Below are positions 2,471 to 33,398 of a stretch of DNA of 33,398 bases, one piece after another (within the stretch, counting starts at the first letter, position 1; every line of letters begins with the position of its first letter). The notes beneath the pieces are model-generated. The model worked only from the letters and a program-made list of their open reading frames with translations. It did not search any database and was not told the origin of the DNA. Made by a program: the position numbers and the translations under genes. The stretch is from a virus, in UHGV virus genome UHGV-0115916; one strand, written 5' to 3'.

Positions 2471-3973
<1,503 letters not shown>

Positions 3974-4006
3974 GAAAAGGGGCATTTTAAGCCCCTTTAT
4001 TTTTTT
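3974..4006 (+). terminator. Intrinsic terminator after the endolysin gene
   Basis: 8-bp stem AAAGGGGC (3976-3983) / GCCCCTTT (3991-3998), 7-nt loop, then ATTTTTTTC; overlaps the 3' end of the convergent ORF 3987..4262. Confidence 0.55.
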
Positions 4007-4262
4007 CAAGAATCGCTAATACGCGTTCTAATTTCACATCAACAATATGAATTTTAGAGCTTAGATCTTTAAGGCTACTCTCTAAATCATCTTGCCCTTT
4101 CTCCAGTCTCGCTACATCAGTTTTAACGTGTGTTAAATCTGATTCTAATTTAGCTAAACGAGAAGAAAGATCTTCTACATCGGCGGTTTTATCACGGAAT
4201 ATACTCCATAAAAAACCACCTGCGGCAATTACCACCGCTGCGATACTCTCCCATCCTGTCAT
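3987..4262 (-). CDS. Type-II membrane protein with coiled-coil domain (i-spanin-like or lysis accessory protein)
   Basis: 91 aa; N-terminal hydrophobic helix IAAVVIAAGGFLWSIF followed by heptad-like charged repeats (LAKLESDLTHVKTDVARLEKGQDDLESSLKDL); no o-spanin partner identified. Confidence 0.45.
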   Translation of the reverse strand: MTGWESIAAVVIAAGGFLWSIFRDKTADVEDLSSRLAKLESDLTHVKTDVARLEKGQDDLESSLKDLSSKIHIVDVKLERVLAILEKNKGA

Positions 4263-4311
4263 TTATTATCCTTAATATAGTTATTGTAGTTACTATTATT
4301 TATTTTAGTTA

Positions 4312-4959
4312 CTAATAACCAGTAAATGAGGCTAACGCTATTTGTACTTGTGCTGAACCCATAGCCTGTGTATATGACATTTGATATCTATTTACATATT
4401 GAAGAGTGAAAGAAGTAGAGCTATTACGCTTAATCAAAATTCCAGAATAACCCGTTACCGTACCATCATCAGACACGTTACCCACACATTGAGAAATGCA
4501 AATCCACGGATCAGCAAATGGTGATGTAACTGTAAGGGCTGTGCCTAAGTCGTGCCCTGCTGGAATAGTAAAGAAACCGCGTACACGTGGCATAGTACCA
4601 GCACTTGCCGCTGACCAGATAAGAGTACCAGCACTATTACGTACATCGAGATACCCAGAAGTTAAGGCCGCTGTATTGTTGGATAGCATAAAACGCCCTG
4701 TACCCGCTTCATAGAGCTGTGCACCGGGAAAGCAGTACCTACCATTACTTTGTAGTTGAAACCAGCGTAGGCCGTTTGCAGTGAAGAAATTAGCCCCTAA
4801 AAACCCTAGTGTAGAGCCATTACCAAAAGATGAGTTAATTAGATAGTACCCTGTATCGCTTAGAGTACCCATAGCTTTTACTTGAGATGATACCGTAGCT
4901 CTATTATCTGAATCGATTGTTAATTTACCTGCATCATTATAACATTGAAAACCTGACAT
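4312..4959 (-). CDS. Tail fibre-associated protein (possible receptor-binding or fibre assembly protein)
   Basis: 215 aa, Gly/Ser/Thr-rich; N-terminus MSGFQCYNDAGKLTIDSD is homologous to the N-terminus of the adjacent 4968..5261 product; lies downstream of the J-like gene. Confidence 0.5.
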   Translation of the reverse strand: MSGFQCYNDAGKLTIDSDNRATVSSQVKAMGTLSDTGYYLINSSFGNGSTLGFLGANFFTANGLRWFQLQSNGRYCFPGAQLYEAGTGRFMLSNNTAALTSGYLDVRNSAGTLIWSAASAGTMPRVRGFFTIPAGHDLGTALTVTSPFADPWICISQCVGNVSDDGTVTGYSGILIKRNSSTSFTLQYVNRYQMSYTQAMGSAQVQIALASFTGY

Positions 4960-10420: not shown

Positions 10421-12604
10421 TTATGAGTTTCTTCTCTGAGAATCACGTACAGCCTGTACAACACTGTTTTGATATTTCTTTAGATTAGCCTGAAATTGTT
10501 TATCATCGCTCATGCCGTAGTTATACATAGGGGCATTTACGATAATATCGCCACCACCAGTACCGTTACCGTTGCTATCTTGATTATCTAAGAATTGAGT
10601 TAGTTTCTTATTAGCCTCTGGTTGTACTACACGTTCACCCGCTTTAAGTACAAATGACTTATCATTATAGCTTGCAGGAAGGTTATCTACGCCGCCGTGG
10701 AATTGACCGCTATTAGATGCACCTTTTGCTGTACTGATAATACTCATACCCATACCTGCAATCTGTGCATATGCCGCTAGGTTCTGTGGGAAACCTAAAG
10801 ATAGTGCACTTGCTAACGCCTCTTGAATCTTCATAATGGTCATAGAGATGGTAATACCCTTCTGTACTGCATAGAACGCCTGAGCCGCCCCGGATGACTC
10901 ACCAAAAGCCGCCGCCATACCATCACCGATCTGTGTCATTGCAGATTCAGAAGTAGATAGAATATTCATGTACTCTTGATTCTGAATCTGTAGTGCTTTA
11001 GTTGCGTACTGTGCTGTAATTGCCGCCTTACGCTTTTCAAAAGATTCTTTATCCTGAATTAGCAATTCATTCTGTTTTAGAATTGCATCTCTTTCTTCTT
11101 GCATACGTTCCATATCGTAAGAAGTGGTATCAAGTCCTAAAGATTGATCAAGTTGATTTCCTAAGTAATTAGACTGTTGTTTATTTAGATCACCGTTCGC
11201 AAGTAAAGCATTTTGATCTAGTGTCTGTTGGTTAGGGTTACTATAACCAATCATCTGATTGATCATATTAAGTCTACCCGCCGCCCCTGCTGTTAGTTGG
11301 TCGTTTAGTAATTCCTGTAGTTTTACATCAGATAAGCCTAATGTTTTTGCACTCTTCTTAATTACGTTTACGATTTCGTTTTGCTGGCGTTTGAATTCTG
11401 CTAACTGACGTTCATTAGTACCTTCAGTCTGATCTACAAGTACCTTATCTAATGCGGCCTGTGCTGCAATGCGTTGTTGTGCTGCTTTAGCCTGTTCGCT
11501 GGCTGCTGCTTTAGCCGCTGCCGCTGCTGCCTTAGCTGCTTTCTCTGCGGCCTTTTTAGGATCTTCTAATGGTGTCCATGCTGCGTTACCACGTGGGTTA
11601 GTTACTGTGGCTTTACCAGTTGGTAAATTACTATTCAGTACAGGCATGTTATTTTTATTCTTTTCGGCGTTAGCTTGATCAATTAATGCAAGTGCATCAT
11701 CACCTAAGCCAAAACCTAAGCCCATTGATTTTAGAAGTTTACTAAAGCTGGCTGCTCGGTTCATTTGAGTTTCCCAAAATCCCTTTGCTGTATCACCTTC
11801 TTTCATTGCTGCAATGAATTCATTAGTAGCAGATACAATAGGGTTTAATGTTTCAATCAAATATTCCTGGCCTGTATCCAGTAGAGTACGTAGATTATTA
11901 TCGAATTCTTCATAGGCTTTAGCTTGATCTTCACTAACTGCTACAGTTTGTTTTTTAATATTCGCCATTGCTTCAGAGTAACTATTAAATTCACTGAGTA
12001 CTCCAGTTAGACGGGAACCATTACTAGCTACTGCTTCCATTGCATAGGTTATTTCTGCTTGTGTTTTTCCTGCATCTCTCATTTTATAATAGAGATCTAC
12101 CATTGCTTCAATACCGCCATTGGCTTTACCTACATATTTTGTAAAGTCATTAACGTTTAAACCCATCTCTTTTACGACGGTAATAAACTCACCTGTACCC
12201 GCTGCGTACCCCTCACCCATTTTATCGGATGTATCTTGCGAAATATCCGCTAGACCTTCTGCATCTATACCAGTTTGTCTAAATGCCTTTTGTAGTTTCT
12301 GTAGGTCGGTTACTGATATACCAGATCGTGTAGAAAGTTGATTTAATTCACGTACTAACCCGTTAACCTTAAGTACAAGTGCACCTACTGCCGTTCCTGC
12401 ACCTAGTGCTACTGCGGAAATACCACCGATACCCGTTGAAAGTTTCCCGAATACTTGAGAAGTATTAGATGCAAAACCACCTAATGATCCCCCGGCTTTT
12501 TTACCGAATGCATCTACTCTTTGTTCTGCCTGTTGTAGTGCTTTAGATAGTCCTGTACTGTCACCATCTATTTCTACTTTAATTTTTTCGTTCTTCCTTG
12601 CCAT
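10421..12604 (-). CDS. Tail tape measure protein
   Basis: 727 aa, largely helical/Ala-Lys-Gln-rich with AAEKAAKAAAAAAKAAASEQAKAAQQRIAAQAA; immediately downstream of the G/GT chaperone genes; TAATG overlap with the upstream ORF. Confidence 0.8.
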   Translation of the reverse strand: MARKNEKIKVEIDGDSTGLSKALQQAEQRVDAFGKKAGGSLGGFASNTSQVFGKLSTGIGGISAVALGAGTAVGALVLKVNGLVRELNQLSTRSGISVTDLQKLQKAFRQTGIDAEGLADISQDTSDKMGEGYAAGTGEFITVVKEMGLNVNDFTKYVGKANGGIEAMVDLYYKMRDAGKTQAEITYAMEAVASNGSRLTGVLSEFNSYSEAMANIKKQTVAVSEDQAKAYEEFDNNLRTLLDTGQEYLIETLNPIVSATNEFIAAMKEGDTAKGFWETQMNRAASFSKLLKSMGLGFGLGDDALALIDQANAEKNKNNMPVLNSNLPTGKATVTNPRGNAAWTPLEDPKKAAEKAAKAAAAAAKAAASEQAKAAQQRIAAQAALDKVLVDQTEGTNERQLAEFKRQQNEIVNVIKKSAKTLGLSDVKLQELLNDQLTAGAAGRLNMINQMIGYSNPNQQTLDQNALLANGDLNKQQSNYLGNQLDQSLGLDTTSYDMERMQEERDAILKQNELLIQDKESFEKRKAAITAQYATKALQIQNQEYMNILSTSESAMTQIGDGMAAAFGESSGAAQAFYAVQKGITISMTIMKIQEALASALSLGFPQNLAAYAQIAGMGMSIISTAKGASNSGQFHGGVDNLPASYNDKSFVLKAGERVVQPEANKKLTQFLDNQDSNGNGTGGGDIIVNAPMYNYGMSDDKQFQANLKKYQNSVVQAVRDSQRRNS

Positions 12605-24041: not shown

Positions 24042-24980
24042 ATGAAACACATAATCCAAACCAGAAGTGTTTTTAAGGATATCGAAGACTCTTTATTTAG
24101 TGAGTTGCATTCAGCTAAGACAAGTATCAAAATCTGTGTTGCATGGATAAACTTTGAGCTTTTTGAAAATATATTATTATCTAAGGCTAAAGAAGGTGTT
24201 GAAGTTGAGATATTAGTTAATAATGATTATATCAATACAAAATTTCTTGATAAAATATCTGATAATATAAAACCATTAATTAATCTAATTAAAAACCCTA
24301 TTAGTAACCACTTAATGCATCATAAATTTTGTATCATTGATGATGAAGTTTTGATTACTGGCAGTTATAATTGGTCAAAAAGAGCACCATATCATTATGA
24401 AAATATAATAATCATCCGTAATGATTTCAATCTAATAATGCAATTTAAACATGAGTTTGCAGATTTAAAATACATGGGTGCAATGCCAAGTACAGAATTT
24501 AATGCATTTAAAGTAACCAAAAATCTCAATAGATTTGTTGTTGGCACATATAGTTCATCTGTGGGGATATATGAAACCGTCACATTGCAGTTATGGGAAA
24601 TTGATATTAACAACTTAACTTTTGAACGACATGGCGAAATGGATATCCCTTTCTTCAATTATTTATTAGATATTAATACTGATGATCATTATCTTATTGA
24701 TGAAAAAGAAAGGTACATCGATCTATATGATCAAGAGCGTAGACAGATGGAGACTATCCAAAGTCATTTTAGAAGATTAAATTGTTCAATTCATGCTTAT
24801 GGAACAGCAATAATAGCGAACGAGAGCGAATACCTTGAAGGTTATGAAGAGCCTATTCGTGTAATTCACTTCAATTGGATAGATATGCGATTAAGCAAAG
24901 TATTACCCTCTTCTTTGCCCGCAACTATGGAACTTGAAGGATTATGGCACGAAATATATGCTCCAAATGGATATATTTAA
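24042..24980 (+). CDS. Phospholipase-D-family (single HKD motif) nuclease with uncharacterised C-terminal domain
   Basis: 312 aa; exact H-x-K-x4-D-x6-G-S-x-N motif at aa 93-110 (HHKFCIIDDEVLITGSYN); AAGGA RBS 6 nt before the ATG; AT-rich gene. Confidence 0.8.
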   Translation: MKHIIQTRSVFKDIEDSLFSELHSAKTSIKICVAWINFELFENILLSKAKEGVEVEILVNNDYINTKFLDKISDNIKPLINLIKNPISNHLMHHKFCIIDDEVLITGSYNWSKRAPYHYENIIIIRNDFNLIMQFKHEFADLKYMGAMPSTEFNAFKVTKNLNRFVVGTYSSSVGIYETVTLQLWEIDINNLTFERHGEMDIPFFNYLLDINTDDHYLIDEKERYIDLYDQERRQMETIQSHFRRLNCSIHAYGTAIIANESEYLEGYEEPIRVIHFNWIDMRLSKVLPSSLPATMELEGLWHEIYAPNGYI

Positions 24981-25012
24981 ATAATATTCTATAATTAATG
25001 AGGAACGGTATT

Positions 25013-25372
25013 ATGTCTAATTATCCTATACCACTTAGCCTTGAATTTAATAGTCAAGATACTGCTAATATCATTTGTAGTTATCTAGAAAAAAATCATC
25101 AAGATTCTATTTTAAAAACCATATTAAATATAGATTTGTCTTTTATTGATTATCGTGCACAATCTTCTAATTACTTTATAATTAATGACGTTGAATATAT
25201 TGGAGATAATAATTATATTTTATATTATAAAATAAACTACTACATTTATAATCTCTGTAAAGATATGGATATTGATGATGACTACGAGACTTCGATAAAT
25301 TTTACATTGAATAATGGATTTTTAGTATTTGATATAATTGATTGTGAAAGAAATATATCAGATGAAATATAG
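25013..25372 (+). CDS. Hypothetical acidic small protein, partner of the PLD-family nuclease
   Basis: 120 aa from ATG 25013 (GAGGA RBS 8 nt upstream; the track start 24998 lacks an RBS); Asp/Glu-rich (DMDIDDDYE, DIIDCERNISDEI); 32 nt downstream of the nuclease gene. Confidence 0.5.
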   Translation: MSNYPIPLSLEFNSQDTANIICSYLEKNHQDSILKTILNIDLSFIDYRAQSSNYFIINDVEYIGDNNYILYYKINYYIYNLCKDMDIDDDYETSINFTLNNGFLVFDIIDCERNISDEI

Positions 25373-25896: not shown

Positions 25897-26622
25897 TTAT
25901 TTCCTTAATAACTTTTTTAATTCCTCAACTGTCTTCATTTCTTTTCCAATATGAATCATTGCATGACAGTTTGCACATAAAGGTATAAGATCTTCAATTG
26001 GGTCAATCTTATAGCGTTTACCAATAGTATGTAGTGGCACTATATGATGAACATGAATATAATTTTTTCCGTGACTTCCATACACTTCTTCAAAATTAAA
26101 ACCACAGACACCACAACTCAAACCATGTTTATCGATACATTCTTTTCTAGCCTTTGGATCTCTCTCATAGTACGTAGCAATCCTTTGATGCTTTTCACCT
26201 TCATAGTATTCACTTTCTATTTCAGGTGTGAATGAATAGTAATCTTCATCGGTGGCATACCAATCTCCATCTTTTTTAGTAAGATATTTTCGTACTATTT
26301 TCTTTTCAAAATGTTTAATCCTAGCAGCACCATTTTCAGTTGTTTTCTCATGCCTAGTCTGGCTAAAGGTGAAAAGACTATACCCTTCATGTAAAATTTT
26401 ATCTATGTGTTCGATAGATTGTGTATAACCATTTTTTTTGTGTCCATTTACATTTTCACGCCAACTGCTAGCCAAGATTAAAACTTTCTTACCATCATCT
26501 GATCTAAGATCTTCCCAAGCTCCAAAAATTATTTTTTTGTTGATCTCATCAATAAATGACCAACTCCAGTTATCATTTTTACATGTAGCACCCAAAGAAC
26601 GCATGAACTCTGTTCGGGACAT
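25897..26622 (-). CDS. HNH nuclease (restriction / McrA-like) with N-terminal domain of unknown function
   Basis: 241 aa; C-terminal HNH motif CGVCGFNFEEVYGSHGKNYIHVHHIVPLHTIG ... LIPLCANCHAMIH; AAGGA RBS; N-terminal ~150 aa Trp-rich domain not identified. Confidence 0.75.
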   Translation of the reverse strand: MSRTEFMRSLGATCKNDNWSWSFIDEINKKIIFGAWEDLRSDDGKKVLILASSWRENVNGHKKNGYTQSIEHIDKILHEGYSLFTFSQTRHEKTTENGAARIKHFEKKIVRKYLTKKDGDWYATDEDYYSFTPEIESEYYEGEKHQRIATYYERDPKARKECIDKHGLSCGVCGFNFEEVYGSHGKNYIHVHHIVPLHTIGKRYKIDPIEDLIPLCANCHAMIHIGKEMKTVEELKKLLRK

Positions 26623-26659: not shown

Positions 26660-26742
26660 ACTATCGACTGTAGGAGGTTTCTATCCTTCGTAAAGCTAAC
26701 AAACCTACCCAAAGTAGATAGAAACCTCCTACAATCGATAGT
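26660..26742. repeat. 26-bp near-perfect inverted repeat between divergent operons (candidate operator or RNA structure)
   Basis: Left arm ACTATCGACTGTAGGAGGTTTCTATC (26660-26685), right arm GATAGAAACCTCCTACAATCGATAGT (26717-26742); 25 of 26 positions complementary; 31-bp spacer. Confidence 0.7.
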
Positions 26743-26825: not shown

Positions 26826-27536
26826 ATGCTTAATCTCACTAAATGTAATTTACTTTTGATCGGCACTGTAATAACTCTATTACTGATAGCTATTCTTGTA
26901 GGTATAAAAATACTATTCTCCGATTCTAATCCAGATCTAGGCAGCTTAGCAGATTGGATCAGTTCTGTATCCGCAATAGGGACTCTTGGTGTTGCCTGGT
27001 TAGCTTATAGTAAAGCTGATGACTACATTGACAAAAAAGCTTCGGAAAGAGGAATTGATATCCTTGTCAATATGGTAACTGAATCATTCGTTGCTTATTT
27101 CAACTCACTAAATGAAACTAATTTCCATGCTTCAAAACTTGAAAATAAAATGATATTGATTGGCTTGGTTGATGAAAAAGTAGATTGCAATATTGAACTA
27201 CAATCATTAAGAGAAAAAATCATAACTCTCTTCGAAAATAGTCATCAAATAGACAAAGATTTTATAAAAATGAAAATAATGAAAATATCAAAACCCAGTG
27301 ATATTTTCTACGATCCAGTAACTAGCGATGATACATTGCAAGCGTTAAAATTAGCATTTCATAAACTGAACACTGAAATTTGTGAGAATGAAAATCAATA
27401 CAACATTAATAATGATTTACTTAGCGAAAATATCAACTTTATTAAAAACACTACCGAAAAGTTAGCCCATGATATTCGCAAACAGTTCTTTACCTCGCCG
27501 AATACTTATAAAGATTATTTTGGAAATCTGTCTTAA
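26826..27536 (+). CDS. Signal-anchored membrane protein (paralogue of the 1056..1796 product)
   Basis: 236 aa; N-terminal helix LLLIGTVITLLLIAILVGIKILF, DLGSLADWISS motif, second hydrophobic stretch, then a ~170-aa soluble domain. Confidence 0.6.
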   Translation: MLNLTKCNLLLIGTVITLLLIAILVGIKILFSDSNPDLGSLADWISSVSAIGTLGVAWLAYSKADDYIDKKASERGIDILVNMVTESFVAYFNSLNETNFHASKLENKMILIGLVDEKVDCNIELQSLREKIITLFENSHQIDKDFIKMKIMKISKPSDIFYDPVTSDDTLQALKLAFHKLNTEICENENQYNINNDLLSENINFIKNTTEKLAHDIRKQFFTSPNTYKDYFGNLS

Positions 27537-27581
27537 ATTATACGCTATCAAATATTCCATCAACATAAACAAGGAAAGTAG

Positions 27582-28280
27582 ATGACTACTCTCACTAGAA
27601 CTTATAATTTACCAAATGAGCTAGTTGAACATTTTTCAAATAACATTGTCTATTTCGAAAAACTTTTGTCTAAGGATTTTTCTGACTTAAATGTTAATGT
27701 AGCACCAGAAGACATTAAGAAAATAGAAAAATCTTTCGAAGTATCACATAGAATACGTGATTTCGAAATCAATCTGTATTGGCAAAGACTGAACTTCCTT
27801 TGGGCCATTACAGCATTGCTATTTGCTGGATGGGGAACATTGATCTTTAAAATCATCGAATTCAATGGAGGGGAAGCACCTTATATTATATTTGCCGCCT
27901 TATCATTTCTCTCACTTATAGGTGGGATTGTAACTATATTCACAAGCTTTATCATTGAGGCAGGTAAGCATTGGCAAAAGGTTTGGGAGTTTCATGTTCA
28001 CGCTCTTGAACCTTTTGTATCAGGTCATTTATATGCAATTCAGTTTTCTTATAAAAATAAAAAAAAGGCATCTATAAGTAGAAGCGTAGAAACTTTCAAT
28101 TATGCTTTGCTGTTTCTTTGGGCATGTTCAGCAGTATTCGCCGCAATCATCCCTTCACAAATAGGGAACGGTCTTGCAGGCATTATCCAATTAGTTATTT
28201 CTCTTCTTATAGTTGGTGCTTTTGTTTATATACGCAACTCTGTTACTAAAAAGGAGTCTATTAAAATTCAGCTTGATTAA
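27582..28280 (+). CDS. Integral membrane protein with about four predicted helices
   Basis: 232 aa; ~70-aa soluble N-terminus, then hydrophobic segments (LNFLWAITALLFAGWGTLIF; YIIFAALSFLSLIGGIVTIFTSFII; ALLFLWACSAVFAAIIP; LAGIIQLVISLLIVGAFVYI); AAGGAAAG RBS; 45 nt downstream of the 26826..27536 gene. Confidence 0.6.
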   Translation: MTTLTRTYNLPNELVEHFSNNIVYFEKLLSKDFSDLNVNVAPEDIKKIEKSFEVSHRIRDFEINLYWQRLNFLWAITALLFAGWGTLIFKIIEFNGGEAPYIIFAALSFLSLIGGIVTIFTSFIIEAGKHWQKVWEFHVHALEPFVSGHLYAIQFSYKNKKKASISRSVETFNYALLFLWACSAVFAAIIPSQIGNGLAGIIQLVISLLIVGAFVYIRNSVTKKESIKIQLD

Positions 28281-28300: not shown

Positions 28301-28510
28301 TTAAGCAGCCCCATAATGGGGCTTTCTTTTTTTAGCATTTACTTTTTGAATGCTCATAAGAATCTCACGTACCTTTGCTTCATTATCACCTGCATCATAT
28401 AGTACCCCATCTTTCCAGTACTGACCCAGTAGTTCTACTTTTGGTAAGCCCGGCATTGCCCTTACTCCATCTTCGTGATCAATATGTAATTCAAGTGATC
28501 CAATAATCAT
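28301..28510 (-). CDS. Hypothetical small protein
   Basis: 69-aa ORF; start overlaps the upstream ORF by 4 nt (ATGA-type coupling); 3' end overlaps the terminator hairpin. Confidence 0.4.
   Translation of the reverse strand: MIIGSLELHIDHEDGVRAMPGLPKVELLGQYWKDGVLYDAGDNEAKVREILMSIQKVNAKKRKPHYGAA
28307..28333 (+). terminator. Intrinsic terminator of the plus-strand membrane-protein operon
   Basis: 7-bp stem AGCCCCA (28307-28313) / TGGGGCT (28317-28323), 3-nt loop, then TTCTTTTTTTT. Confidence 0.65.
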
Positions 28511-28707
28511 TGCACGAAAGTTGTTAGGGTTAATTGAAAGTATTCTGCATCGTCTGGTTGTAGTTCAGCGTAATATTCTGGTGTGCTATCAAATGTAATT
28601 TCATTATTGATCATTACGCCCTGTGTATTTACTGCATATCTACGTTGTTTCATTCGGTCAAATAATAGTATTCCTTTCACGCGGTGATATGTTGTTAGTT
28701 CCCTCAT
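28507..28707 (-). CDS. Hypothetical small protein
   Basis: 66-aa ORF with 4-nt overlaps at both ends. Confidence 0.4.
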   Translation of the reverse strand: MRELTTYHRVKGILLFDRMKQRRYAVNTQGVMINNEITFDSTPEYYAELQPDDAEYFQLTLTTFVQ

Positions 28708-28967
28708 TTGGTTAGTCCTTGGTAGTAAGCCTTAGTAGCTCTGATATTGAATTCTTTGTTTAGGTGTGTATATGATGGCATATGCCCGTTATCCGTCATG
28801 TATCGCTCTATGTAGGCCGTAAGTAGTTCTAACTTGGTTGGGCTTACATCTGGTGTATCACTCAATAGAGAGCGTTTAGGGGCGTTATAGAGGCCATCAC
28901 TTCGACCGCCTTGATTCTTGATATTGTGGCGTAGTGTATTCCACTTACCGGGCTTTTGTTTTGGCAT
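28704..28967 (-). CDS. Hypothetical small basic protein (87 aa from ATG 28967)
   Basis: Start reassigned from the track GTG (29033) to ATG 28967, which has an AGGAG RBS; the discarded N-terminal extension lies in a GC-rich repeat block. Confidence 0.45.
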   Translation of the reverse strand: MPKQKPGKWNTLRHNIKNQGGRSDGLYNAPKRSLLSDTPDVSPTKLELLTAYIERYMTDNGHMPSYTHLNKEFNIRATKAYYQGLTK

Positions 28968-29000
28968 AGTATTGTACTCCTGTACTGGTTGATTAATTGG

Positions 29001-29045
29001 GGCGGCGACTCGTTCACACCTGCGGCGGTTCACTGCGTGGCGACT
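29001..29045. repeat. GC-rich block with short direct repeats
   Basis: GGCGACT occurs at 29004 and 29039 and GTTCAC at 29012 and 29028, inside an otherwise AT-rich region. Confidence 0.5.
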
Positions 29046-29109
29046 TCAAGAGACTTTGAATAACTGACTTTCAGTAGTATCTCTTGAGTACTTACACCTA
29101 CTGGAGTGA

Positions 29110-29164
29110 GCGAAAGCGAGAAAAGCACGCTTGCGGGTTTTCGATGCGATAGCGAGAAAAACGC
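29110..29164. repeat. Imperfect ~19-bp direct repeat pair (iteron-like)
   Basis: GCGAAAGCGAGAAAAGCACGC (29110-29130) and GCGATAGCGAGAAAAACGC (29146-29164); AGCGAGAAAA core at 29115 and 29151 (36-bp period). Confidence 0.6.
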
Positions 29165-29191
29165 AATGTGATACCCTTATGTGTTTTTTAT

Positions 29192-29249
29192 AGGGATAAT
29201 AGATAAGACGCTTTAGCGGATTAGCTATTATCCCTCTGAATAATAGATA
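29192..29249. repeat. 11-bp perfect inverted repeat plus 10-bp direct repeat
   Basis: AGGGATAATAG (29192-29202) and its complement CTATTATCCCT (29225-29235); ATAATAGATA at 29196 and 29240. Confidence 0.6.
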
Positions 29250-29272
29250 TGGCGTATTTTATATCTGTTTTT

Positions 29273-29432
29273 CATCTTTCCATTAGAAAGTAGGATAATT
29301 ATAATAGGTTGGAAAGATGCCATTTTGCCCCCCATTTTAACGGTAGAATGCGGGTTTCAGGGGTGTTGTTGGCCATATTTTCACACCATCTTTCCATCAA
29401 AGGGATTCCCACGCTAAACAGTTGGAAAGATG
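29273..29432. repeat. Four copies of an 11-bp motif (TTGGAAAGATG) in alternating orientation
   Basis: CATCTTTCCAT at 29273-29283 and 29387-29397 (latter written with one flanking base as 29387-29398); TTGGAAAGATG at 29309-29319 and 29422-29432; forms two inverted pairs with 35-36 bp offsets. Confidence 0.7.
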
Positions 29433-29434
29433 AT

Positions 29435-29911
29435 TTATAGTGAATTTATGTATACCTTGATACTTCCTAAGCTAGTTCCATCCCTCATCATCTGGTGTAC
29501 TTTCTTTTTTTCGTGCTGTGTTAGCTGTCGTGCATCACCCTTTAGTGCATACTTGATCATTACGCCGTGATTGTATGCCTCTAATAGTTCGTGTGCGGCC
29601 TTTACTGCAATGTTTCTATAATTATATAGCATTGACTTGTTTAGCGGCTTCTCGTTCCATTTCATGCGATTCTGGCGGCGAGTATTCACGGTATGTTGTA
29701 CTTCCTCTATTCCAATCATAGGACACTCTAAAACCAGCTTTAGGATCTCTAACCTACTAACCTTAGTACGGCTAGTGGTTCCTTCAAACTCTTTAGTAAT
29801 GACTTCATCAATAATATCTATTGCTTCTGGTGTAAACTGATTCAAAAACTTATAACCTGATAAAACGTTGTGTAAGTCTGTATTGTCGTATAATTTCTTT
29901 TTTCCTGCCAT
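29435..29911 (-). CDS. Hypothetical protein, possible DNA-binding regulator
   Basis: Start reassigned to ATG 29911 (MAGKKKLYDN...) because the track start codon at 29974 lies inside the stem of a strong hairpin; basic protein with no confident motif. Confidence 0.45.
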   Translation of the reverse strand: MAGKKKLYDNTDLHNVLSGYKFLNQFTPEAIDIIDEVITKEFEGTTSRTKVSRLEILKLVLECPMIGIEEVQHTVNTRRQNRMKWNEKPLNKSMLYNYRNIAVKAAHELLEAYNHGVMIKYALKGDARQLTQHEKKKVHQMMRDGTSLGSIKVYINSL

Positions 29912-29948
29912 AATAAATACCTTTATAAAATGTGTTATGTTCCTTAAT

Positions 29949-29986
29949 GGCGTTATGGTGTTTTCTCCCACCATAACGCCTTTTTA
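29949..29986 (+). terminator. Strong hairpin (12-bp stem) with trailing T-run
   Basis: GGCGTTATGGTG (29949-29960), 8-nt loop, CACCATAACGCC (29969-29980), then TTTTTATT on the plus strand; lies between the homing endonuclease stop and the 29911 start. Confidence 0.45.
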
Positions 29987-30472
29987 TTAGTTGTCTTTTG
30001 CAACCTTTGTATATGTCTGTCTATGTGTACTTCTATTGTACTTTTCATTCATGAATAGCGTGATATTGATACATGACATTCCACCAGTGTATAACGCCTT
30101 TACTTCATCTTTTTGTACTGGTGTTAGACGTGGTTCATTTTGTTTCTTACGTACTGCCTTACATGAATTTTCACTATATGTAATCCACTGCAAATTAGAA
30201 ATATTGTTGTCTCGTTTATCACTATTGATATTATCTACAACTAATCTTTTATTTGTTTGGGGTTTACTTAGAAATGTTTCTGCTACGAGTCTGTGTGTCT
30301 CTATCGGATATGATTTAGATTTCCCATCCTCATAAACAGTTAAAGTAACTTTATAGTACCCATTACTTTTACTATAACTCTGTGTTAGATAATTACCCGT
30401 TTTAGTATTGCGTACTTCTCCGTTACTACTTACTTCATAATTTACATATTGTGTTTGTTTCCATAATGTCAT
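29987..30472 (-). CDS. HNH homing endonuclease-like protein (NUMOD4 + HNH_3-type)
   Basis: 161 aa; YEVSSNGEVRN...NGYY.V.L...GKSKSY.IHRLVAETFL (NUMOD4-like) followed by VVDNINSDKRDNNISNLQWITYSEN (HNH_3-like). Confidence 0.75.
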   Translation of the reverse strand: MTLWKQTQYVNYEVSSNGEVRNTKTGNYLTQSYSKSNGYYKVTLTVYEDGKSKSYPIETHRLVAETFLSKPQTNKRLVVDNINSDKRDNNISNLQWITYSENSCKAVRKKQNEPRLTPVQKDEVKALYTGGMSCINITLFMNEKYNRSTHRQTYTKVAKDN

Positions 30473-30550
30473 TTTCTCTTCCTTGGACTATGGGGTACTG
30501 TGCAATCCTTGCAAGTACATGAGTAATACTTTTTACGATAGTATCAAACG

Positions 30551-30772
30551 TTATTGATTTTCGATTAGTAGTTTGAAAGTTGGAAAATTCATCCTTTCAA
30601 ATAGTTCTGTATGTAGTTTACGTGTTGTGTGGTAATACTTCATATCTTTATAGAAATCAGAATGGATTACCGTATTACAGTACGTTTTACCATTTGGTTT
30701 AGATACATCTGCAATTAGTACATTGTCGGTATCGGTACGTACATTGTTAAAATGGAATTCGCCAAAGTTCAT
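30551..30772 (-). CDS. Hypothetical small protein (possible toxin-like partner of the RHH protein)
   Basis: 73 aa; start codon overlaps the stop of the upstream RHH gene (TAATG); no motif recognised. Confidence 0.45.
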   Translation of the reverse strand: MNFGEFHFNNVRTDTDNVLIADVSKPNGKTYCNTVIHSDFYKDMKYYHTTRKLHTELFERMNFPTFKLLIENQ

Positions 30773-30927
30773 TACTTCTTTCCTCCTAAGATTACTTGTT
30801 GATTGAGTAGATATTGTAAAGCGGTACTCATTGATTTTGCTTTCCCTTCATCAATGATACTTTGTAGTACATTGTGTTGATGTTCGTTTAGACGTGCTGA
30901 TACTTTGTATTCTTTATTTTCTTTCAT
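30772..30927 (-). CDS. Ribbon-helix-helix (Arc/CopG-like) DNA-binding protein (51 aa; not in the ORF track)
   Basis: Hand-translated MKENKEYKVSARLNEHQHNVLQSIIDEGKAKSMSTALQYLLNQQVILGGKK; beta-strand-like KVSARL followed by two helices; AAAGGAAAA RBS before ATG 30927. Confidence 0.5.
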   Translation of the reverse strand: MKENKEYKVSARLNEHQHNVLQSIIDEGKAKSMSTALQYLLNQQVILGGKK

Positions 30928-30974
30928 TGATTTTCCTTTTGTCTGCAAATCCTTAAAAATTTCATGTAAAAATC

Positions 30975-30994
30975 ACCCCGTAGGGATACGGGGT
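30975..30994 (-). terminator. Hairpin upstream of the RHH gene (possible terminator of upstream minus-strand transcription)
   Basis: 8-bp stem ACCCCGTA (30975-30982) / TACGGGGT (30987-30994) with GGGA loop; followed on the minus strand by a GAUUUUUA tract. Confidence 0.35.
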
Positions 30995-31125
30995 AATAAC
31001 AAAATCTAAGGAGGAGGGATTTTAATATTCACACTTATTTATGAGATGAGAGCGGTCGCCCCCTTCATATACTATTATTATATCACATTTTGCCCATTTC
31101 GTCCCAGAAATCGACAAAATCAATT

Positions 31126-31290
31126 TTAAGTGGCTGATTTATATGTATTTATTACAGAAGTCGCGATTATCGCCATAATGCATAAGAAGAGATATACTAA
31201 AAATGCAATGTATAGATAAACTATCCACCCGGTGATCATAAACACCATACCTACCACTAATACAAAAGCACTGACTAACCAATCTAACAT
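31126..31290 (-). CDS. Small hydrophobic membrane protein (54 aa; not in the ORF track)
   Basis: Hand-translated MLDWLVSAFVLVVGMVFMITGWIVYLYIAFLVYLFLCIMAIIATSVINTYKSAT; AAGGGGA RBS before ATG 31290; two predicted helices. Confidence 0.3.
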   Translation of the reverse strand: MLDWLVSAFVLVVGMVFMITGWIVYLYIAFLVYLFLCIMAIIATSVINTYKSAT

Positions 31291-31334
31291 AGTTTCCCCT
31301 TATAATTATTATGTACAATTATTTATCAATAAGA

Positions 31335-31375
31335 CGAAAAAAAGCCCCGTAATGCGACATCAATCGATACGGGGC
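31335..31375 (-). terminator. Intrinsic terminator downstream of the integrase gene
   Basis: 8-bp stem GCCCCGTA (31344-31351) / TACGGGGC (31368-31375); on the minus strand the stem is followed by UUUUUUU (complement of 31337-31343). Confidence 0.55.
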
Positions 31376-31449
31376 ATAACAACTACTACTATATTATTTT
31401 TTGTTTACGGTATTTCTAATCTACTTTCTAGGCCAAAATAAATGCCCGT

Positions 31450-33348
31450 CTAGATCTGGTCTATCCGATAACGCTCTATGAACTCTTTACGTGTTAAACC
31501 AGTCGATTCTAATGCAGTGGCTATATCCTTTGGAACTCGACCATTCAAGGCAATACTATATGTATTGCCTTCATACACAATGTCTACTCGATCATACTTT
31601 CCGGTATTAGGCCAGAATGAAGCCCCACTTATTTCACTATAACCAACCACTTCTAACATCTCATTAGCAGTATTGAACAGATCTAAATAACTTTGTTCAA
31701 TTTTATCAAGTTGTTCCACTGCTTTATTAAATAATGGCAGATTGCTAGTGGTAAGAAATCCTTCATCTCTGATACTTACATTATCAACAGAAGAAAATTC
31801 AACTTTAAACGCCCAATGTGGTTTTCTATCAGTTCCACCAAAAACTAACCATTCATCTTTAAAATGATACTTTATTTTTATCGTTATACACCCATCAGTT
31901 TTATCAACTATAACACTTTCAATAATAGAACTAATTACTTTCCTTATTTTATTTCTATCCGTATCCTGCATATTTGTAAAAACCGCCCACTGAATAAGAA
32001 TCATAAATTCATTTATATCGACTTCTAGAGATCCTTTACCTTTCAGTGAATATAAGCGTTCTTTTAACTTATCAACTTCCAGAACAGTCTTTTTACGTTC
32101 CATATCAAACGCATTTAGTTGAACTGCTAACGCACTAACATTAGGAGCAATTGCTATTGCTTGAGCCATGTTTGTTATGCGAGATTCCAGATCAGTTATC
32201 AACGTTTCTTTTCTACTGAGGTCTTCTTCTATCACAGTTGTGTCAATACCATCTTTTAGTCTCTTATTCATGTAACCGATCAGTAGTGAAATGATCGTAC
32301 AGTGTTCAACTAATTGTGCTGATATAGACCAGCCAGAACAGTTTTTTTGTAAGTGAACCCCATTAGTACAAATATAGCGAGCACTGCCATGATTCATGAA
32401 AGAATGCATAGTTCCTCCACACTTGCTACACCGTAACACCTGCAACCCTGATAACAATTTAATTTCTTCTACTTTGTCTTTCTTAGCCTTGAAGTTGTTT
32501 TGCTGCTTACGTTCAGCCAAGGTTAAATACTCTGCTTCATCTTTGCATAACCATGGATAGTAGTTATCAAGTTTGTAAGTAGCACCACCAGCATTGATAG
32601 TCCTTTCACCAATCAACGCCCGATTATCACGCATCTTTTTCAATACCTGATAATCCCATTCTTTACCCTTTAAACCATTAGGATATTTTTTATCGAGATG
32701 ACGCTTTACTGTATAGATGCCATTCCCATCTAAAAACATGTCTATAGCTTCGCGAGCGATACTCCAGTAAACGGGATGTTCTTTTACTGCTTCATATTGC
32801 GAACCTGAATCATCTATCCAAAATGGATGGCGACCAACTGACTTAATGTTTACTGGCAACCCTGCTTTATGACGTTCGACCAAGGCAACAACATTGCCTA
32901 TGGTCCTGTTAGATTTCGTTTCTGATTCTTCATTGCCACGGATAAACATCAGAATAGAAATCATCAGATCAGTAGGGTTTTGTCTGATGGATTCTCTGTT
33001 ATAGACCTTCCGATCCATTCCTGTGACAATCGTTAGCCCTAAACCAATCAATTCAAGGAATAAACGAAGTGCTTCATCCACCTGATCGCGTGATAGTCGG
33101 TCGAGGTTTTCACAGTAAAGCCAAGAGTCAGACGGTATAGCATTATTTTTTACGGCGTCTATGAAGTCACCCAACTTACCCGCCCTATTTTTTCCCCTGT
33201 AAGCACTCGTGCCAGGTTCCAAAATTTCAACCATTTCAAGCCCCGCTTCTTCAGCATAGGCTTTCGCTGCCGCTACCTGCCTGTTCTTGGTTGTTCCTTT
33301 TTCTTGGCGATCACTTGACCACCTGATATAGCTATAAAGTTGCGGCAT
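31450..33348 (-). CDS. Large serine recombinase (phage integrase)
   Basis: 632 aa; N-terminal resolvase-type catalytic domain (YIRWSSDRQ with the serine nucleophile; ...RLSRD...), recombinase domain, Cys-rich zinc-ribbon segment (CSKCGG...C...C) and long C-terminal coiled-coil-like region. Confidence 0.85.
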   Translation of the reverse strand: MPQLYSYIRWSSDRQEKGTTKNRQVAAAKAYAEEAGLEMVEILEPGTSAYRGKNRAGKLGDFIDAVKNNAIPSDSWLYCENLDRLSRDQVDEALRLFLELIGLGLTIVTGMDRKVYNRESIRQNPTDLMISILMFIRGNEESETKSNRTIGNVVALVERHKAGLPVNIKSVGRHPFWIDDSGSQYEAVKEHPVYWSIAREAIDMFLDGNGIYTVKRHLDKKYPNGLKGKEWDYQVLKKMRDNRALIGERTINAGGATYKLDNYYPWLCKDEAEYLTLAERKQQNNFKAKKDKVEEIKLLSGLQVLRCSKCGGTMHSFMNHGSARYICTNGVHLQKNCSGWSISAQLVEHCTIISLLIGYMNKRLKDGIDTTVIEEDLSRKETLITDLESRITNMAQAIAIAPNVSALAVQLNAFDMERKKTVLEVDKLKERLYSLKGKGSLEVDINEFMILIQWAVFTNMQDTDRNKIRKVISSIIESVIVDKTDGCITIKIKYHFKDEWLVFGGTDRKPHWAFKVEFSSVDNVSIRDEGFLTTSNLPLFNKAVEQLDKIEQSYLDLFNTANEMLEVVGYSEISGASFWPNTGKYDRVDIVYEGNTYSIALNGRVPKDIATALESTGLTRKEFIERYRIDQI

Positions 33349-33398
33349 CTATATAATCCCCGGCATTGTGAGCAACTGATTGTACAAAAAAATGTCTA

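Follow-up and report, generated by a model that had tools for sequence, protein, structure and literature searches.

The virus genome UHGV-0115916, analysed over its full 33,398 nucleotides (nt; "the window"), carries on its minus strand a 51-amino-acid (aa) gene resembling ribbon-helix-helix (RHH) regulators (30772..30927), with a 73-aa gene (30551..30772) directly behind it. The reading to which we give slightly more than even credence is that the 51-aa gene encodes a CopG/Arc-like RHH autoregulator at the head of an early or replication operon, and that the 73-aa protein is an accessory early protein. The original prediction, made from the letters of this region, had offered two readings of the gene pair. 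The toxin-antitoxin-like one is unsupported, since the RHH protein has no tail, the two proteins do not co-vary, the partner is optional and it matches no toxin. The other one, a small phage regulator of Arc/Mnt type, comes close, but no counterpart of ant or mnt and no match to the Arc family accompany it.

Both open reading frames (ORFs) are real genes, because the position of the RHH gene is conserved in about 17 related cassettes and the 73-aa ORF is kept open across divergence. The RHH gene extends from ATG at 30927 to TAA at 30774-30772 and encodes a basic protein (isoelectric point 9.5). A Shine-Dalgarno sequence, AAGGA (30938-30934), precedes its start codon by six bases. A 58-aa version starting from TTG at 30948 is possible, but it agrees with neither the conserved MKE... 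N-termini nor this Shine-Dalgarno sequence. The predicted overlap between the 51-aa ORF and the start of the 73-aa ORF (ATG 30772-30770, stop codon 30553-30551) is borne out; the junction reads TAATG and base 30772 is shared. This junction had been taken for the classic coupling of antitoxin-toxin pairs and of small phage regulator pairs, but it is not distinctive: the same one-base geometry is found at 12604 and 20943, where it joins unrelated ordinary phage genes, and several overlaps of 4-8 nt also occur in the window. The original prediction depended on conservation of the 51-aa ORF in related genomes, and such conservation was found. Homologues of 46-54 aa, with 36-100% identity, occupy the same genomic position in the ~17 cassettes, which come from Escherichia coli, Citrobacter, Pantoea and eight IMG/VR contigs.

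The 51-aa protein very probably has a ribbon-helix-helix fold. Three observations support the hallmarks of this fold that were noticed earlier: the topology of the model, the nature of its closest structural neighbours, and weak matches to Pfam RHH_1 in three of 15 relatives (best E = 0.008). An AlphaFold2 model was built from an 8-sequence alignment (predicted local distance difference test score 89). In this model, residues 1-14 are extended and residues 15-26 and 33-46 form helices, and the predicted strand-helix-helix order is the topology of an RHH monomer. As in other RHH proteins, a homodimer would place a two-stranded antiparallel sheet in the DNA major groove; the model here is of the monomer. 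The modelled fold fills residues ~6-46, and the protein would be a bare DNA-binding domain without a C-terminal toxin-binding tail. When the model was compared with known structures by Foldseek, the top PDB neighbours were RHH domains of ParD2 and ParD1 antitoxins and TCP domains, all with E > 1; the ParD domains share a non-significant 28-34% identity with it. In BFVD, the second-ranked entry is a 48-aa archaeal-virus transcriptional regulator, and CopG/RHH-annotated entries are present too, again all with E > 1. Such values are expected because the domain has only 45 residues.

Alignment of the 15-member RHH family reveals that G28, A30, K31, A36 and Y39 are invariant and K29 nearly so. The strand segment YKVSARL displays alternation of polar and hydrophobic residues, and the invariant or nearly invariant G-K-A-K turn precedes helix B and is followed by S/T/N-rich positions. 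The family profile was also compared by hhalign with CopG, ParD(RK2) and Arc. The strand and the G-x-K/S turn fall in register, E-GKAKS of the 51-aa family being aligned to EMGLSKS of CopG, at non-significant scores (E = 0.08 with CopG, E = 0.12 with Arc). Scans of the 51-aa and 73-aa proteins against Pfam, PHROG, PADLOC and NCBIfam gave no meaningful matches, and the only match to the RHH protein in the plasmid collection is on a Pantoea megaplasmid, in the same prophage context.

Upstream of the RHH gene, a putative sigma-70 promoter (31077..31105, minus strand) is composed of a -35 hexamer GGGACG (31105-31100), a 17-nt spacer and an extended -10 element TGa-TATAAT (31085-31077). It was omitted by a generic promoter scan, because its -35 matches at just three of six positions. 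Nevertheless, GGGAC(A/G), a spacer of roughly 17 nt and a TATAAT-like hexamer occur in almost every lineage read, despite diverged flanks. The promoter is followed by a leader of about 75 nt (30998..31070, minus strand) with the CU-rich box ATCCCTCCTCCTTAG at 31020-31006. Every lineage read has an (A/T)TCTCC(T/A) box shortly before the terminator, and leader length varies across lineages from about 45 to 190 nt. The intrinsic terminator itself (30966..30997, minus strand), detected by terminator scan, consists of a hairpin (30997-30972) and a T-run; the RHH start codon is found 38 nt past it. In all nine lineages folded, a GC-rich hairpin with a U-run closes the leader, with differing stem sequences. 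The same promoter-leader-terminator arrangement was also observed at the same position in L001, L007, L011-L014 and L016-L021 (L numbers designate related loci). Since neither scan nor reading of the sequence disclosed a promoter between the terminator and the RHH start, the operon appears to be dependent on terminator read-through. The arrangement could be an attenuator or a small RNA. An Rfam scan of 28500-33398 retrieved no relevant family and no C4-type RNA, and no extended complementary target of the CU-rich box was found elsewhere in the window.

An inverted repeat centred on the -35 hexamer (31087..31120) is a candidate operator. Its 14-nt arms (31087-31100 and 31107-31120) are 86% complementary and separated by a 6-nt gap; the corresponding position in L012 is occupied by a perfect inverted repeat of 9 nt. 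The original prediction had named 26660..26742 and 29273..29432 as targets for a binding assay of the RHH protein. These regions share no motif with the RHH promoter region, and on this comparison the repeat at 31087..31120 is the better candidate site. Another element, a GACAAAA box (30943-30937, minus strand), overlaps the AAGGA Shine-Dalgarno sequence, the two together covering 30934..30943. TG[C/T]AGACAAA is conserved in three lineages. GACAAAA has six copies in the whole window, two of which bracket the cassette, as noticed post hoc; the one in inverted orientation is at 31113-31119. TG[C/T]AGACAAA was considered as a dispersed operator and rejected, as it is not enriched in the window. 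Between the window and L012, the cassette comprising promoter, leader, terminator and RHH gene is 94% identical in nucleotides, whereas the integrases are 36% identical, suggesting that the RHH regulator and its cis elements travel as one unit.

We examined gene order around the RHH gene in E. coli, Citrobacter, Pantoea and IMG/VR loci, about 17 cassettes in all. Upstream order is constant in relatives: integrase, membrane protein of 53-75 aa, promoter-leader-terminator, RHH gene. Downstream of it, a 645-650-aa Walker-A protein (ATPase) follows directly in L014 and L016, an 87-aa and then a 977-aa protein in L015, and a protein of ~100 aa and then a larger one in L018 (101 aa + 470 aa) and Pantoea (418 aa). 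E. coli GF3-3 has an unrelated 77-aa and then a 958-aa protein in this place. An HNH endonuclease and then a protein of ~150-190 aa are found in Citrobacter, L007, L017, L019, L020 and L021, and also in the window. Finally, members of the 73-aa family occupy the slot in the window, L001-L006, L012, L013 and the second cassette of L020. The 944-aa protein of L013 matches primase/helicase PHROGs (E about 1e-15), and large ORFs of L015, L020 and GF3-3 are situated at the same position. On the strength of the L013 match, the RHH gene is likely to head a replication operon in many relatives.

In the window, the next same-strand gene after the 73-aa gene encodes a NUMOD4/HNH_3 homing-type endonuclease (29987..30472, minus strand; Pfam and PHROG matches), and no terminator was found between the two genes in the terminator scan. 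The endonuclease gene is followed by that of a 157-179-aa protein (29435..29974, minus strand), the last gene before a repeat-rich intergenic region. Counterparts of this protein, judged by eye, follow the HNH gene in L007, L017, L019 and L021, and loci of Citrobacter and of viruses share the order RHH-HNH-~180-aa. A GC-rich hairpin with a 12-bp stem (29949..29980) is located between the HNH gene and the 179-aa ORF. As it overlaps the first ATG of this ORF, the real start is probably at 29908 (MAGKKK...).

L012 contains two RHH cassettes. Its ATPase gene is truncated and shares its last 19 residues, VIRDWLVIPKVQEFFFHTS, with the C-terminus of the L013 integrase; it is followed by an L013-like cassette without the 73-aa gene (L012 4471..6164 versus L013 4170..5450). 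This double-cassette locus might have arisen by recombination, represent one prophage nested in another, or be a chimera of the assembly. L013 and the second L012 cassette are near-identical apart from a precise, gene-sized indel of 222 nt, which deletes the 73-aa ORF and sets the start of the next gene directly after the RHH stop codon.

The 73-aa gene behaves as an optional cassette after the RHH gene. Over the 2694 nt that span the integrase and everything up to codon 23 of the 73-aa gene, the window and E. coli L001 differ at eight positions (99.7% identity), the RHH gene being identical. A divergent central patch then follows (30575..30704, minus strand; roughly codons 24-66), with 50 mismatches in 130 nt (62% identity). 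The last 11 codons again contain only one, synonymous, difference, and homology stops exactly at the stop codon. For codons 24-62 of the patch, synonymous divergence (dS) is about 1.1, nonsynonymous divergence (dN) about 0.51 and dN/dS about 0.47. Because synonymous sites in the patch are near saturation, it looks like an old allele brought in by recombination. Origin of the patch from a diversity-generating retroelement was rejected, as no reverse-transcriptase domain was detected among scanned ORFs and synonymous sites are saturated as well. The 73-aa ORF is open in five diverged cassettes, with pairwise dN/dS < 1 among three of these; comparison of the window gene with that of L013 gives dN of 0.45 and dS above 2. 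In a low-confidence model, the invariant N- and C-terminal strands of the protein would frame a swappable central region.

The 73-aa family is rare. Exhaustive HMMER search of 1.84 billion representatives retrieved three clusters of it, and the plasmid collection contained nothing similar. A 78-aa relative is encoded in L020, the 72-aa protein of L013 displays only a marginal local match to the family (E = 0.011), and the 77-aa and 87-aa proteins found in the slot are unrelated to it. Family scans and fold search revealed no toxin family or fold matching the 73-aa protein.

How do these features compare with known systems? Arc of phage P22 is a 53-aa RHH protein encoded by the first gene of the immI arc-ant operon, and it shuts this operon off after an early burst. 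The 51-aa protein is likewise a small RHH protein encoded by the first gene of a phage operon. Unlike in P22, there is no ant homologue, no divergent mnt-like gene or other small regulator adjoins the cassette, and the operons of the window and its relatives lead into replication or HNH genes. Pfam and PHROG scans gave no match to the Arc or Ant family. CopG of plasmid pMV158 is a 45-aa RHH-only protein, the first gene product of copG-repB, in which copG is co-transcribed with repB; it represses its own promoter Pcr, where a pseudo-symmetric element over the -35 nucleates four dimers (PMC2724298). Similarly, the window has a 51-aa RHH-only first gene and an inverted repeat centred on the -35, and a primase/helicase is located downstream in relatives. 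The differences from CopG are that the sequences of the two proteins are not significantly similar, that the carrier is a phage and not a plasmid, and that a leader and an intrinsic terminator separate the promoter from the RHH gene. In addition, no antisense RNA was identified, and the downstream genes of the window encode the HNH endonuclease and the 157-179-aa protein.

By analogy with CopG and Arc, RHH dimers would bind cooperatively to the dyad element (31087-31120) that covers the -35 hexamer of the promoter from which they are expressed, and this binding would limit transcription of the operon that the RHH gene heads. The conserved leader terminator would constitute a second gate on expression from this promoter. 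The 73-aa gene would share the transcript and be translated by coupling, as one of several unrelated small genes that take the slot and not as a partner of the RHH gene. Its product would probably serve an accessory role early in infection; host takeover or counter-defence are guesses at what this might be.

Several observations weigh against the autoregulator reading. With regard to the fold, the 51-aa protein of the window has itself no Pfam match, PDB hmmsearch with the RHH family profiles retrieved only chance matches (e.g. PrgB, CheC), and Foldseek E-values were above 1, so that support at the sequence level is weak. With regard to regulation, the candidate operator repeat belongs only to the window/L012 lineage and was not recovered in L007, L013 and L017. 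A terminator between promoter and gene is absent from the CopG and Arc operons, which hints at a different control logic. The RHH protein need not be the main switch, because a second possible DNA-binding protein is encoded at 28704..28967, where a LexA_DNA_bind match falls below threshold. Furthermore, the endonuclease and the 157-179-aa protein encoded downstream in the window include no recognisable replication protein.

The gene pair could instead represent a type II toxin-antitoxin module, in which the 73-aa protein is a novel toxin held in check by a ParD/CopG-type RHH antitoxin that also autoregulates the two-gene transcript, but we regard this as highly improbable. The antitoxin-first order with its one-base stop/start overlap would suit such a module. 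So would the tight adjacency of the RHH and 73-aa genes, which is repeated in L012, L013 and L020 and holds wherever the 73-aa gene is found; a fixed insertion slot explains this constant upstream neighbour equally well. As in ParD-ParE, the RHH gene is upstream of, and overlaps, a small ORF, and the best structural neighbours of the model, although non-significant, are ParD RHH domains. ParD antitoxins, however, wrap ParE via a disordered C-terminal domain, which corresponds to residues 49-81 in VcParD2 (81 aa; PMC10776004). No such toxin-binding region exists in the 46-54-aa RHH family, whose fold uses residues ~6-46. The presumed toxin is not ParE-like or similar to any other toxin family or fold, and about 12 of 17 cassettes have the RHH gene without it; the clean 222-nt presence/absence difference likewise marks it as dispensable. 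Nor do the two proteins co-vary: compared with the window, the RHH protein is 100% identical and the 73-aa protein 70% identical in L001, and the respective values for L012 are 98% and 46%. The pair is never free-standing on plasmids or on chromosomes outside the prophage slot, and it appears to be embedded in a longer operon behind the leader terminator, because the interval from the 73-aa gene to the following same-strand gene yielded no terminator.

Serine integrases work with small directionality factors of diverse kinds. The RHH and 73-aa genes both lie less than 600 bp from a gene for a large serine integrase, and early expression after induction would be expected of them. One of their products might therefore be the recombination directionality factor of this integrase, yet the distribution of the genes leaves this idea with very little probability. 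Near-identical RHH cassettes (94% in nucleotides, 98% in amino acids) are found beside integrases that are 36% identical and use different attachment sites; the RHH gene follows its promoter, not its integrase, which makes such a role unlikely. The 73-aa gene is missing from most family members and its product is only 70% identical beside a nearly identical integrase gene. Moreover, the integrase gene forms a separate transcription unit with its own terminator, and a literature search for a link between RHH proteins and serine-integrase directionality found nothing relevant.

More weight, though still that of an unlikely alternative, may be given to an immunity or decision module. Phage P4 CI RNA and P1/P7 c4 RNA are short leader RNAs of early operons that control downstream genes by termination. 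Here, a constitutive promoter would produce a short, terminated CU-rich RNA silencing the early operon, and the RHH protein, made on read-through, would act in a Cro-like or anti-immunity manner. Conservation of promoter, CU-box leader and intrinsic terminator in all lineages read, with differing hairpin sequences, fits this idea, as do the lack of a visible promoter between terminator and RHH start and the lack of a detected CI-type repressor in the ~33 kb genome. On the other hand, the likeness to P4 CI and P1/P7 c4 RNAs is architectural only: Rfam gave no match, C4-type RNAs included, and neither processing signals nor a specific complementary target was identified. The leader is also variable in length (about 45 to 190 nt), the terminator may just attenuate leakily or finish off the membrane-protein transcript from upstream, and a possible winged-helix protein is encoded elsewhere in the genome. 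The wider proposal is similarly doubtful, namely that a CI-less prophage family runs its early/replication operon by an undescribed combination of conserved, constitutive-looking promoter, terminated CU-rich RNA and read-through RHH protein. Immunity would then be based on RNA or attenuation, resembling P4 or P1 c4 in logic but not in sequence, and a hot slot behind the RHH gene would take exchangeable early accessory genes, the 73-aa family among them. A two-protein switch, with the 73-aa protein as co-repressor or anti-repressor modulating the RHH protein, is quite unlikely. It would agree with the translational coupling and strict RHH adjacency in five cassettes, and with N- and C-terminal segments of the 73-aa protein that are invariant where the RHH protein is invariant. 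Against it, most family members and one of the near-isogenic pair do without the 73-aa gene, unrelated proteins take the same slot, and the RHH sequence does not distinguish lineages that have the 73-aa partner from those that lack it. The RHH autoregulator with an accessory early gene behind it is the favoured account.

The window as a whole is an essentially complete ~33 kb serine-integrase prophage of Enterobacterales. Its minus strand encodes small and large (gpA-type) terminase, a connector protein, tail genes, lysis genes and a methyltransferase, and the 632-aa large serine integrase is located at the right end (31450..33348). The integrase gene terminates with its own hairpin and T-run (about 31375-31336, minus strand) and is a separate transcription unit. 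Between them lies the gene of a 54-aa membrane protein (minus strand, stop codon 31128-31126), with its own promoter-like site at 31329-31302. Over its right-hand 5.8 kb, the window matches a prophage of Pseudocitrobacter faecalis DSM 27453 (NZ_QNRL01000002.1) at 99.66% identity, and this match terminates exactly at the window edge. E. coli relatives are ~33 kb long and inserted between rimO and bssR; other relatives, with integrases down to 36% identical, adjoin msyB or modC-side genes. Relatives also occur in Citrobacter, Pseudocitrobacter and Pantoea. The phage is distant from every deposited phage: tblastn and megablast searches of the phage collection gave nothing, no match at the DNA level was found, and identity of the large terminase does not exceed 36%. 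A literature search on the rimO/bssR prophage found nothing relevant. Among scanned ORFs of at least 70 aa outside the tail and head block, no CI-type repressor was detectable by Pfam or PHROG.

The remaining regions of the window contain further elements. Four perfect copies of TGGAAAGATG are located in the intergenic region 29033-29435 (29273..29432), downstream of the 179-aa gene, where they form two inverted pairs with gaps of 26-27 nt; a further occurrence was noted at 28408. With one mismatch allowed, nine matches are found versus 2.2 expected by chance. The TGGAAAGATG repeats (29273-29432) were rejected as RHH sites, as the surroundings of the RHH promoter contain none of them. In appearance they are iterons or operators, probably of a protein other than RHH. 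The adjacent minus-strand ORF of 87-109 aa (28704..29033) has a C-terminal LexA winged-helix-like segment (Pfam LexA_DNA_bind, E = 0.024, sub-threshold), and its DNA is 77% identical to the 3' portion of the L001 gene for the 645-aa ATPase. It may encode a second regulator or an origin-binding protein.

Plus-strand cargo is found between the terminase and HNH genes (24042..25372 and 26826..28280; in L011 at 3051..4351). In the window it consists of genes for a PLD-family nuclease (weak MkoC/DpdK/DrmC-like matches) and a 124-aa protein, and for a 236-aa protein and an 8xMP membrane protein. E. coli GF3-3 has SLATT and SMODS genes in the corresponding slot, which looks like a defence-gene hotspot. 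Three homing-type endonuclease genes are present in the 33 kb (3046..3483, 25897..26622 and 29987..30472), one SegE-like of the GIY-YIG type and two of the HNH type, one of these with NUMOD4. The 26-nt inverted repeat at 26660..26742 (96% complementary, 31-nt gap) is located in the divergent intergenic region between the HNH-241 and 236-aa genes. In E. coli L002, an insertion sequence element has inserted in the matching interval.

With the false toxin-antitoxin lead removed, the cassette can be placed among known arrangements. Phage and plasmid operons headed by a bare RHH regulator are of a known kind, and the family itself is new and uncurated. Two uncurated protein families are defined here, the RHH family of 46-54 aa and the 72-78-aa family. 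The one potentially unusual feature could be the conserved promoter, short RNA and terminator together with no detectable CI-type repressor, and this conserved promoter-leader-terminator is the part of the cassette most deserving experiment. If the autoregulator reading is true, the cassette would be the main regulatory handle of uncharacterised ~33 kb serine-integrase prophages. The variable slot behind the regulator is a place where phages swap small early genes, and such slots are useful for seeking host-takeover or counter-defence functions.

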